A stretch of 64,000 nucleotides of DNA, taken from contig CAWIEK010000044.1 in NCBI GenBank assembly GCA_963835065.1, positions 480,001 through 544,000 on the forward strand. Reading direction: 5' to 3'. The translations under genes were made by a program, and so were the position numbers. Below the pieces are notes generated by a model that worked only from the letters and a program-made list of their open reading frames with translations, searched no databases and was not told where the DNA came from. The DNA comes from an uncultured Chthonomonadaceae bacterium. GTDB lineage: Bacteria > Armatimonadota > Chthonomonadetes > Chthonomonadales > Chthonomonadaceae. Numbering within the stretch: position 1 is the first letter of the stretch; each line of letters starts with the position of its first letter. Below are positions 10,929-15,795 of this stretch, in pieces.

Positions 10929-13389
10929 TCAGGTTGTCTCACCTTCGGGTGAAGCCGTTGCAGCCATGCGGCGCGGAATGGCGTTCTGGTAAACTTCGGT
11001 TAATTGTGTCACGGGTATGTCAATAACATCTTGCGGACCGAGCGCGATACGCAGGTTTTCGCCGCCGACTGTGCCGATCCAATCGGCGCGGATGCCTAAT
11101 TGTTCCGCCCGGGTTTTGAGTTTGGCAAACTGCTTTTCGGTGCGAATGGAAACAACGGCGCGGCCCTGCGCTTCGCCGAAGAGGGTGGCGGAAAGCGGCA
11201 GCGCGTTCTCGTCCTCGTTTTTCTTCAGCAATACCAGTGCGCCCTGCTTGCTCAACATGCACTTTTCGGCAAGGCATACGGCCAGCCCGCCATCCGAAAC
11301 ATCGTGGCAGCTTGCGAACATGCCCTCGCCGATGCACTCCAGCAGCAGGGTATGCAGCCGTTTTTCGCCTTCCAGATCAATGTGGGGTGGGATACCCGCT
11401 TCGACGCCGTGAATAACGCTCAGGTACTCACTGCCGCCCAAGCCGCCGTTCGGGTCGTCATAGGCGGTCAGGAGAACAATCGTGTCGCCCTCAGCGTCCG
11501 GGCGAAACGCGGCCTGGGTCCGCTTGTTCACATCATCGAGAATGCCTAACATGCCGATGGTCGGGGTCGGGAAGATGGGGCCGTAATCGGGCGTTTCATT
11601 GTAAAAGCTGACGTTGCCGGACACGACGGGCGTACCGAAAACTTCCGTTGCCTTTGCGATGCCTTCCACGCTGCGCCGGAACTGCCAGAAGCCGGTCGGT
11701 TTTTCGGGATTGGCGAAATTGAGGTTGTCCGTCACCGCTGCGGGACGCGCCCCCACGCAGGCCACATTGCGCGCGGCTTCGGCAACCGCGATCTGCCCGC
11801 CGACATAGGGATCAAGGTAGCCATACCGCCCGTTGCCGTCAATCTTGACCGCAATGCCCTTCTGACTGCCCCGTATGCGCAAAATCGCCGCGTCCGAACC
11901 CGGCATAGCAACCGTCAGCGTCTGCACCATGCTGTCGTACTGCTCGGTCACATAGTTCTTGCTGGCGATATTCGGCGCATCAAGTAGTAATCGAAGTACA
12001 TCATCGTAATCCATGATGCCGACAAGCGCGTTTCGGTCTGTATTGGTAAGTTTCGGCCAATCATATGCCATCAGCATGTAAATTAGCATCCGCAATCGGA
12101 TCATGAGGAGGCAAAATACCTTCACTAGTCATCTTCTCTGTCAACTCTCGTATTTCCGCTTTGCGCTCGTCTGTCGTCTCTGCCCGAAGTTGACGAATGG
12201 TTTGTCCTGGTTCCGGCAGAGTAGAAAAGTTGAACGCCTGCACCTGCTTGATGTAGTCCGGCTCTTCGGTTTCGAGGTAGTAGGTGGGACATTCGTTGGT
12301 AAGCGCGTTGGCGGGCACTTCCGCAACCACTACGCCGTTGTCTTTGACGCGAACCAGTTTGTCATCCGTCACAAAGCCGATAACCGCCGCGTTCAAGCCC
12401 CATTTTTTGAACACGTCCATCACGCGGTTTTCGGTTCCCGCCTGCGCGATGCACAACATGCGCTCCTGCGACTCGGACAGCATGATTTCATACGGCGTCA
12501 TATCGGCTTCGCGGAGCGGCACTTTGCGCACATCTATTTCCATGCCGTTGCCCGCTTTGGAAGCCGTTTCGCACGTGGAGCAGGTCAGACCCGCCGCGCC
12601 CATGTCCTGTATGCCGACCACAAAGCCGGTATCGAGCGCTTCCAATGTGGCTTCGATGAGCAGTTTTTCCATGAATGGATCGCCCATCTGCACATTGGGG
12701 CGCTTGCTTTCGCTGTCCGGGCCGAGTTCCACAGCTGCGAACGTCGCGCCGTGGATGCCGTCCTTGCCCGTGCTGCTGCCGACATAGATAACCGGATTGC
12801 CCACGCCCTTCGCCGCCGCGCTCGCCACTTTGCCTAATTCCACGACGCCCACCGACATAGCGTTGACAAGCGGGTTGCCGCTATAGCACGGATGAAAGTT
12901 GATTTCGCCCGCCACCGTGGGAACGCCAACGGAATTACCATAACTGCTGATACCGGCGACGGCGTGTTCAAACAGGTAGCGGTTGCGGGGATCGTCAAGG
13001 GGACCGAAGCGGAGGGAGTTGAGGTTGGCGATTGGACGCGCGCCCATCGTGAAGATGTCGCGCAGGATGCCGCCCACGCCGGTTGCCGCGCCCTGAAACG
13101 GCTCTACGGCGCTTGGGTGGTTGTGCGATTCGATTTTGAAGCAGATGCCGAGTTTGTCATCAAGCGGAATCACGCCCGCGTTTTCCAGCGCGCCCTGCTC
13201 CTGCGCTTCCTTGTAGTTCTTGAACAGGGCCAGCACGGGGCGGGAATACTTGTAGCCGCAGTGTTCCGACCACATCACGCTGAACATGCCCAGTTCCGTG
13301 ATTGTCGGCTCGCGCTTCAGCGTGTCCAGCACCTGTTGGTACTCCCGCTCGTTCAAGCCCATTTCGCGCGCCATCTCGGGTGTAATCAA
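10929..13389 (-). CDS. purL: Phosphoribosylformylglycinamidine synthase subunit PurL, frameshifted near 12065 within an insertion
   Basis: WSEHCGYK, ESHNHPS, GGILRDIF, LSESQERM in the upstream ORF; QYDSMV, GNVSFYNE, HDVSDGGL in the downstream ORF; GGAG plus TTG start at 13389. Confidence 0.92.
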
Positions 13390-13403
13390 AAGTCGCTCCG
13401 GGA

Positions 13404-13534
13404 AGTAGTCAGTAGCCAGTAGCCAGTAGTCAGTAGTCAGTAGGTCGAAGCCGAAAGTTTGCAGCATACTCTGCAATTTTTGTAGAAAAGAAGAGGGGTT
13501 TCTACTGACTACTGACTACTGGCTACTGACTACT
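13404..13534. repeat. Paired inverted heptamer repeats (AGTAGTC/GACTACT)
   Basis: AGTAGTCAGTAGCCAGTAGCCAGTAGTCAGTAGTCAGTAG ... CTACTGACTACTGACTACTGGCTACTGACTACT upstream of purL. Confidence 0.88.
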
Positions 13535-14818: not shown

Positions 14819-14886
14819 CTTCCTCCCCCGCCTGATCCACAATCCTGTTTCAGTACGCCATCAAGGGTAAGCATAGGCATAATAAG

Positions 14887-14967
14887 GTAGGGGTTCTGCT
14901 TGCTGAACCCTCCTCAGACGGGGGCTGAACCCTCCTCAAACGAAGGCGCAGCAAGCAGCGCCCCTAC
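14887..14967. repeat. GTAG-type REP-like palindromic unit, copy 1
   Basis: GTAGGGGTTCTGCTTGCTGAACCC ... GGCGCAGCAAGCAGCGCCCCTAC; inverted copy at 19653-19735. Confidence 0.85.
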
Positions 14968-14991
14968 CCCTACAATCTACCTTGATGGAAT

Positions 14992-15795
14992 CTAGTTGAC
15001 TGATTTCGCGCAGCGAAATCCGGTGTCGCGTCACGTGGCTTCCGCGCCCTCGATGGCATGGTTGTAGGTGCGCAGGTCGCGCTCCCCGTAGCCGACCGCC
15101 CCGCCCCGCAAAAGGCGCTGATCGGGGTTGCCGTGATAAAAGCCCTGCACCCATTCCCACGCGTTGCCGGACATATCCACGCAGCCGTAGGGACTGACGC
15201 CGCCCGGCGCGCTGCCGGTGGGACGCACCCGCGACGCGCCAATCGCGCACTGCCCCGGCTTTTTCACCATAGAAGGCCGCGCAGTCAGCGTTTTGCCGGG
15301 ATGAGCGCGGGATGCCACGCGCTTTTCGTCATAGTCATTGCCCCAGGGATAGCGCCTGCCGTCCGTGCCCCGCGCCGCTTTTTCCCATTCGGCCTCAGTC
15401 GGCAGACGCTTGCCGACCGCTTTGGCATACGCGGCGGCTTCCGCATAAACCACATTCGTAACGGGCAGGTTTTCCTCGCCCTTGGGAAACTGGTGGTCGG
15501 GAACAACCTTCTTGTACGCCGCATTGGTCACTTCCGTTTTGTCCATGTAGAAGGACGGCACGAACTCGCGGTGCAGGGGCGCAACGTCGTCGTCCTTGTC
15601 CGCGTCGTTGCTGCCCGTGAGAAAATCACCCCCCGCCACGTACACCATTCCCGGCGGCGTTTGCGCTTGTTCCTTTGCCATTTGCGATTGGGTGGGCGCG
15701 CTCGGCAGGCGCAGCCGAACTATCGCGCCGGTAGTCAGAACAGCGATGCCCAGTGTCACCGCCATCTGAGTTTTGCTAAGTTTGGTTTTGCGCAT
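14992..15795 (-). CDS. Formylglycine-generating-enzyme (FGE-sulfatase/SUMF1) domain protein with in-frame TGA at 15031-15033 (candidate selenocysteine)
   Basis: MDKTEVTN, RLPTEAEWEKAARG, DMSGNAWEW, RGG; reading through the TGA gives RDTGFRCAKSVN-stop, restoring the family's terminal GFRC motif. Confidence 0.85.

Follow-up and report, generated by a model that had tools for sequence, protein, structure and literature searches.

A protein family with the FGE-type fold in Armatimonadota is very probably an uncatalogued selenoprotein family

We analysed a window of 64,000 nucleotides (the whole stretch of DNA under study) from an uncultured Chthonomonadaceae bacterium. We conclude, with a probability of about 0.96 as judged from sequence, that an in-frame TGA (15031..15033, minus strand) in a gene for an FGE-sulfatase domain is read as selenocysteine (Sec). 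The encoded protein very probably represents an uncatalogued selenoprotein family that is built on the FGE/C-type-lectin fold and is not FGE. Across the family the TGA exchanges with Cys codons, the TGA form is linked to selA and selB, and the hairpin that follows the TGA is under selection. The proteins have the FGE fold and have lost the FGE catalytic triad.

The full gene spans 14992..15795 on the minus strand and encodes 267 amino acids with TGA255 as Sec. Under translation table 11, the open reading frame that begins at ATG 15795 stops at TGA 15033-15031 (...IEGAEAT), which leaves the 254 residues of standard calling. Translation confirmed the original prediction that this TGA, codon 255, is in frame and that the frame stays open behind it: it runs through RDTGFRCAKSVN to TAG 14994-14992, giving a product that ends EAT-U-RDTGFRCAKSVN. 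The match to PF03781 (FGE-sulfatase) covers residues 47-264 (15004..15657, minus strand; E 6e-43) and spans the 255-position profile from 2 to 255, which puts the end of the domain past the TGA. By Pfam, profile, model and Foldseek, this domain has the FGE-type C-type-lectin fold. The tail and its TAG (14992..15030, minus strand) hold the last core strand of the fold as well as the GFR motif, as seen in the translation, the Pfam match and the model. No match to a sigma-70-type promoter or to a terminator was found for the gene. On its 3' side lies a repeated intergenic element (window ~14880-14990) where contig depth is raised, and genome-wide, many stop codons are followed by long palindromic repeats of two families.

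We gathered 228 homologues from two protein searches, namely the best 120 listed, which include the window's own truncated product (1), and 108 from a second search with a distant member. Among the best 120 listed, 112 end at the Thr preceding the site and 8 have Cys. Over the whole set, the chain stops exactly short of the site in 161 proteins and has Cys there in 67, with no other residue in any; the 161 were counted from proteins, and stop codon identity was read only at loci with DNA, which excludes most of them. At the DNA level, 14 of 15 full-length matches in related genomes have one internal TGA. Matches occur in 33 of the 401 genomes of a phylum sample, 24 with the TGA and 9 without it (8 Cys and 1 cut by a contig end). 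A metagenome pattern that left the codon open retrieved 27 loci, comprising 22 TGA, 2 TGC, 1 off-family GAG and 2 that were not parsed. After removing 6 duplicates and 2 contig-cut rows, the distinct DNA loci comprise 44 with TGA and 9 with TGC or TGT.

The original prediction had named a TGA-or-Cys column in a tBLASTn-type comparison as support and Trp, Arg or variable residues at the site as refutation. Only TGA and Cys were found, with coding conservation past the column, and the refuting residues were absent (0 of 228 homologues). The column is variable in an outgroup of 78 generic FGE-domain loci, which came from a generic-motif scan of genome contigs that returned mostly distant FGE domains. 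The scan also gave one Vulcanimicrobiota member of the family. Beyond the TGA, all 44 TGA loci keep the Gly, Phe and Arg of GFR while their codons vary synonymously, and the next stop falls 11-27 codons downstream in each. A stop at the TGA would cost the last core strand. TGA doubles as the true stop codon in half of these genes (22 of 44).

The named homologues are from Armatimonadota, and the TGA form also occurs in one Vulcanimicrobiota genome (L051). On a tree of 45 rows, whose root is not fixed, 4 Sec/Cys changes are needed (at least 3 are forced) and 3 Cys groups are nested among the Sec forms. A representative-library search returned the family signature in 2 of 148 new matches, most of which are multi-domain FGE proteins, and the ESM Atlas returned generic PF03781 clusters only.

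The machinery for selenocysteine insertion, which the original prediction listed as selA, selB, selC and selD, is encoded in the same genome: selB, selC and selD were found as expected, along with a selA that a frameshift breaks in two. The selC product is a tRNA-Sec with a UCA anticodon, and selD is itself a Sec form with its own in-frame TGA and hairpin. The full length of selA is covered in two frames (L001:1022-2418; G000:C46:53876-55263), with a break near L001 1505-1515. In both same-genus genomes the match to selA runs through without interruption, which makes an assembly indel the likely source of the frameshift. The window contains a comparable case at 10929-13476 (minus strand), where two overlapping ORFs make up what we take to be purL; this split is probably another indel.

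We surveyed 36 other carrier genomes. Genomes with the TGA form have selA or selB in 27 of 27 cases (selA in 26, selB in 23), and neither gene was found in 7 of 8 genomes with the Cys form, although carrier genomes are not independent of kinship and 5 of the 8 Cys genomes are from one family. The background frequency of selA in the phylum sample is 218 of 401. The Vulcanimicrobiota TGA carrier also has selA. The remaining Cys genome (G013, locus L031) has both genes; it keeps selA, selB, selC and selD, and its hairpin has decayed.

The window's genome encodes five further candidates of known selenoprotein types with a TGA at the catalytic Cys. A genome-wide coding-score scan gave 22 candidates, of which 7 were put to Pfam, and 2 of these 7 were not selenoprotein types. 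The scan missed the FGE-fold gene of the window, so its count of the selenoproteome is only a lower bound. Other likely selenoproteins of this genome are a fusion of a beta-propeller with a UxxC redoxin, a CxxU protein resembling AhpD, an exported UxxC protein resembling TlpA, a deiodinase-like protein, a rhodanese and SelD (locus labels L217, L218, L219, L220, L221 and L011). The propeller-redoxin fusion reached no whole-protein selenoprotein model cut-off.

The SECIS-like hairpin lies within the coding region at 15002..15020 on the minus strand. It reads GAUUUCGC-UGC-GCGAAAUC (15020-15002 in the direction of the gene) and begins at +11 after the UGA, and its perfect 8-bp stem and G-containing loop are just as had been described. 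The bSECIS consensus has a loop of 3-9 nt, a stem of 4-16 bp, a G in the first two loop positions, a spacing of 16-37 nt and an MFE of at most -7.5 (PMC13188914, in part). The window hairpin falls inside every one of these ranges, with a loop of 3 nt, a stem of 8 pairs, G as the second loop base, an MFE of -9.5 kcal/mol and 18 nt between UGA and loop. Compared with shuffled sequences, its stability has a z of -2.81 for a span of 26 nt (3 of 200 shuffles), -1.42 for 42 nt and ~0 for 61 and 74 nt. A loose SECIS filter was passed by 164 of the 6909 TGA-ended frames of at least 150 codons in the same genome. Taken alone, the hairpin is weak evidence; it stands above chance because it is conserved across orthologues.

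Pairing in the stem amounts to 97.6% across 36 distinct TGA rows, a value reached by 0 of 500 shuffles, and slid controls give 31-65%. The protein motif by itself gives 65% stem pairing, and the 9 Cys rows are at 65.3% (396 of 500 shuffles as high). Stem codons are nearly fixed in the TGA forms (TTT 42/44, CGC 40/44, GCG 43/43 Ala), and the same codons are used upstream in the same genes at 47%, 45% and 40%, respectively. The Cys forms have TTT in 4/9, CGC in 3/9 and GCG in 5/8. Certain stem changes swap the amino acid yet keep the pair (Ser/Thr, Lys/Arg). The original prediction had called for a covariation check, and the hairpin does covary, with 11 both-sided changes in TGA rows, all at one pair of eight (A-U 19, U-A 10, C-G 1). 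The hairpin is thus under selection in the TGA forms only.

The protein begins with a basic N-terminus followed by a hydrophobic stretch (residues ~11-26; 15718..15765, minus strand), a predicted signal anchor or signal peptide. A 15-residue hydropathy of at least 1.5 is found in all 100 members whose N-terminus is long enough for the assessment. The protein is therefore probably anchored or exported through its N-terminus, with the domain facing outward. An initial structural model, built on an alignment that was shallow and consisted mostly of truncated forms, has a pLDDT of 56 and a helix at 8-29 and was not used for the fold. We used a second model of residues 44-267, built with a 94-row alignment, which has a pLDDT of 92.4 and is low only in loop 164-183. 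Foldseek comparison of this read-through model with CalU17, pFGE and FGEs gave TM values of 0.73-0.80, with CalU17 and pFGE at the top, and the profile match to FGE has an E of ~1e-58.

The family signature GGAxxY-x12-E-x4-T-[U/C]-x-D (G231-D257; 15025..15105, minus strand) was read from the alignment of the 228 homologues. Tyr236 and Glu249 are kept in 228 of 228, Thr254 in 227 of 228, and Asp257 in all 67 that reach it. The Trp of GNAWEW, W213, is found in 215 of 228. No sulfur or selenium residue other than position 255, Sec or Cys, is common to all 228 members, and we infer that Sec255 is the working residue. A second cysteine, Cys183 (15247..15249, minus strand), lies in a variable loop where model confidence is low (pLDDT 57-63), and it is a candidate resolving partner of Sec255. 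All 161 truncated forms have the loop Cys, versus 42 of 67 Cys forms; the other 25 Cys forms are without it.

Alignment with human FGE places Ala233 at Ser333, Tyr236 at Cys336, a 3-residue deletion at Cys341 and Sec255 at Ala358. Human S333, C336 and C341 form the Ser-x2-Cys-x4-Cys catalytic triad of FGE, and the ligand-binding site of the FGE-type fold is the segment between strands 3 and 5 (PMC6328139, in part). In T. curvata FGE, Ser290 hydrogen-bonds the substrate Arg (PMC6676471, in part). Thr254 corresponds to this Ser290 when counted along the human FGE alignment, with the offset checked roughly. Given its place in the ligand-groove segment at the Ala358 position, Sec255 is predicted to be in the groove wall and not at the copper site, among the invariant Tyr, Glu, Thr and Asp. 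The earlier placement of Sec near the active-site region therefore holds for the ligand-groove segment and fails for the position of an FGE catalytic cysteine.

We compared the protein with characterized systems of the same fold. It shares its fold with FGE/SUMF1 (human 1Y1E and 2AII; S. coelicolor 2Q17; T. curvata 6S07), as well as the motifs RLPTEAEWE, GNAWEW and GFRC (on FGE chemistry, see PMC2459300 and PMC6676471, both in part). Unlike FGE/SUMF1, it has neither the Ser-Cys-Cys triad nor the long substrate-binding insertion, and it has a predicted N-terminal anchor and no sulfatase neighbour. Because the fold is that of FGE and the triad is missing, we describe it as an FGE-fold protein and not as FGE. 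A true FGE was ruled out on the missing triad, the position of Sec255 off the catalytic Cys and the lack of a sulfatase link: the nearest sulfatase is ~14 kb off, and none is found among the conserved neighbours scanned. A separate, true FGE with the Ser-Cys-Cys motif is encoded directly upstream of a sulfatase elsewhere in the genome (L206; G000:C52:13324-15335).

The FGE-type C-type-lectin fold without the catalytic cysteines is likewise found in CalU17 (6VQP), pFGE/SUMF2 (1Y4J), PvdO and the DGR target TvpA, to which the protein has ~19-25% identity. The literature searched contained no report of Sec in CalU17, pFGE/SUMF2, PvdO or TvpA. Groove residues are variable in DGR targets whereas they are invariant in the window family; a DGR target was ruled out because conservation within the family peaks in this segment, which is not hypervariable. 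The EgtB, OvoA/OvsA and SenA synthases have a C-terminal FGE-like domain, and SenA and OvsA take selenium as a substrate, whereas the selenium of the window protein would sit in the polypeptide. These synthases are ~380-470 aa long with an extra N-terminal part, compared with 267 aa here, and a synthase of the EgtB/SenA kind was ruled out, as the window protein scores 75 and 62 bits against NCBIfam cut-offs of 360 and 420. With SelD, FdhA and other selenoproteins that have a coding-region SECIS (PMC13188914, in part), the window gene has in common an in-frame UGA where homologues have Cys and a small-loop hairpin with an early G at 16-37 nt downstream, and the family shares the co-occurrence with selA, selB, selC and selD. 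It differs from the catalogued selenoproteins in that it lacks both CxxU and UxxC motifs, and 72 residues separate Sec255 from its putative partner Cys on the N-terminal side.

The strict presence of the loop Cys in the truncated forms, and its presence in only some of the Cys forms, suggests a Sec-Cys redox pair and fits a resolving or protecting role for Cys183. We favour, at slightly better than even odds, a selenol/thiol redox cycle in which Sec255 and Cys183 form a Se-S bond that is reduced in a thioredoxin-like manner. SelB would read the hairpin behind the TGA and insert Sec255, and the N-terminal helix would keep the domain outside the cytoplasm. The selenolate of Sec255, in the groove lined by the invariant Tyr236, Glu249, Thr254 and Asp257, may then attack an oxidised sulfur or peroxide centre of the substrate. 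Cys183 would close the Se-S bond and release the product, and an exported thioredoxin-like reductant could re-open the bond. Since 25 of the 67 Cys forms are without the loop Cys, this residue is not at the core of the chemistry and is not essential family-wide.

That same absence from 25 Cys forms weighs against the possibility that Sec255 binds a soft metal, joined by Cys183 in the forms that have it, in a Cu(I)-type two-chalcogen site rebuilt elsewhere in the groove of an oxidase, metal chaperone or sensor. We consider this unlikely. In its favour, two cysteines bind Cu(I) in true FGEs (PMC6676471, in part), the O2-pocket Trp of GNAWEW is kept, and ligation or tuning of a metal could fall to the invariant Tyr, Glu and Asp. 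Against it, the Ser-Cys-Cys triad is gone, and no copper-related gene was seen among the conserved neighbours scanned.

The conservation of position 255 alone among sulfur and selenium residues would also suit a site that serves as nucleophile or leaving group without redox function (in covalent catalysis, in the transfer of sulfur or selenium, or in electrophile capture), or a Sec that is merely half of a stabilising Se-S bond, and the FGE-type fold does host varied chemistry as well as plain ligand binding. This seems improbable to us, because the loop Cys of all 161 truncated forms fits a resolving role and characterized bacterial selenoproteins are mostly redox enzymes (PMC13188914, in part). 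An ordinary stop (in a truncated variant, a pseudogene or through sequencing error) or a Trp codon is barely credible: the frameshift of selA in the assembly and the chance occurrence of loose hairpins behind 164 of 6909 TGA-ended frames are in its favour, but the same TGA recurs at 44 distinct loci in two phyla, tracks selA and selB, precedes the last core strand, and is followed by a tail conserved as protein. On the alternation with Cys only, never Trp, together with this tail, we rejected Trp recoding and a pseudogene.

A broader picture can be sketched tentatively, although we would not bet on it. A family of exported enzymes may have dropped the copper-cysteine site of FGE and assembled a new Tyr-Glu-Thr-Sec-Asp plus loop-Cys active site in the same groove, which would make it a selenoenzyme on the C-type-lectin/FGE fold. 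This site might act on a peptide or small molecule of the cell envelope by an undescribed chemistry, possibly involving a copper-selenolate.

The immediate neighbours of the gene encode an SPW-like protein and a GNAT protein. Across ~54 loci, no neighbour is conserved, and PspA, Thi4, amidohydrolase and similar genes are clade-limited; among the loci scanned, none that is conserved points to a substrate. At 11 loci of one clade, none of them in the window, the selenoprotein gene has a divergent PspA/IM30 gene immediately upstream (L028, L029, L030, L032, L134, L135, L154, L160, L161, L168 and L171).

We compared the family with existing catalogues and literature. In the part of PMC13188914 covered here, Table 1, with 119 families or subfamilies, has no entry for FGE, SUMF1 or PF03781, and no NCBIfam 20.0 model reaches its cut-off for the window protein. 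Both agree with the original remark that the FGE-like family was not known as a selenoprotein. A family of FGE-fold selenoproteins was likewise absent from the term-searched main texts of PMC13326102, PMC12013277 and PMC9312934 and from the parts examined of the supplementary data of PMC12013277 and PMC13326102. Armatimonadota genomes are included in the genome list of the latter supplement (in part), and PMC4807772 (in part) is unrelated to an FGE-fold Sec family. The family is not described in the titles and abstract starts of open literature that pairs selenoprotein or selenocysteine with FGE, SUMF1, sulfatase or Armatimonad.

Relative to the 2026 catalogue (PMC13188914, in part) and NCBIfam 20.0, the family would add a new fold to the bacterial selenoproteome. 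In public collections, predicted products would be short by at least 11 residues in at least 161 cases. The analysis also pinpoints a probable working residue for a large unnamed FGE-like subfamily whose default labels are SUMF1, EgtB or PvdO. The natural Cys forms, with and without the loop cysteine, are ready comparisons for studying the chemistry with no need for selenium insertion.

The survey of tRNAs gave one minor observation. Five selA-less genomes had matches to the tRNA-Sec model, which were identified as four tRNAs with a GCA anticodon and one tRNA-Ser and were therefore not counted as Sec machinery. We looked for selA and selB in the genomes of the four GCA tRNAs (G220, G204, G408 and G285) and did not find them. 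These tRNAs (L181, L182, L183 and L184) are long, at 95-97 nt, have the GCA (Cys) anticodon and score over the tRNA-Sec cut-off. They may recall the non-canonical tRNAs that PMC5389517 reportedly describes.
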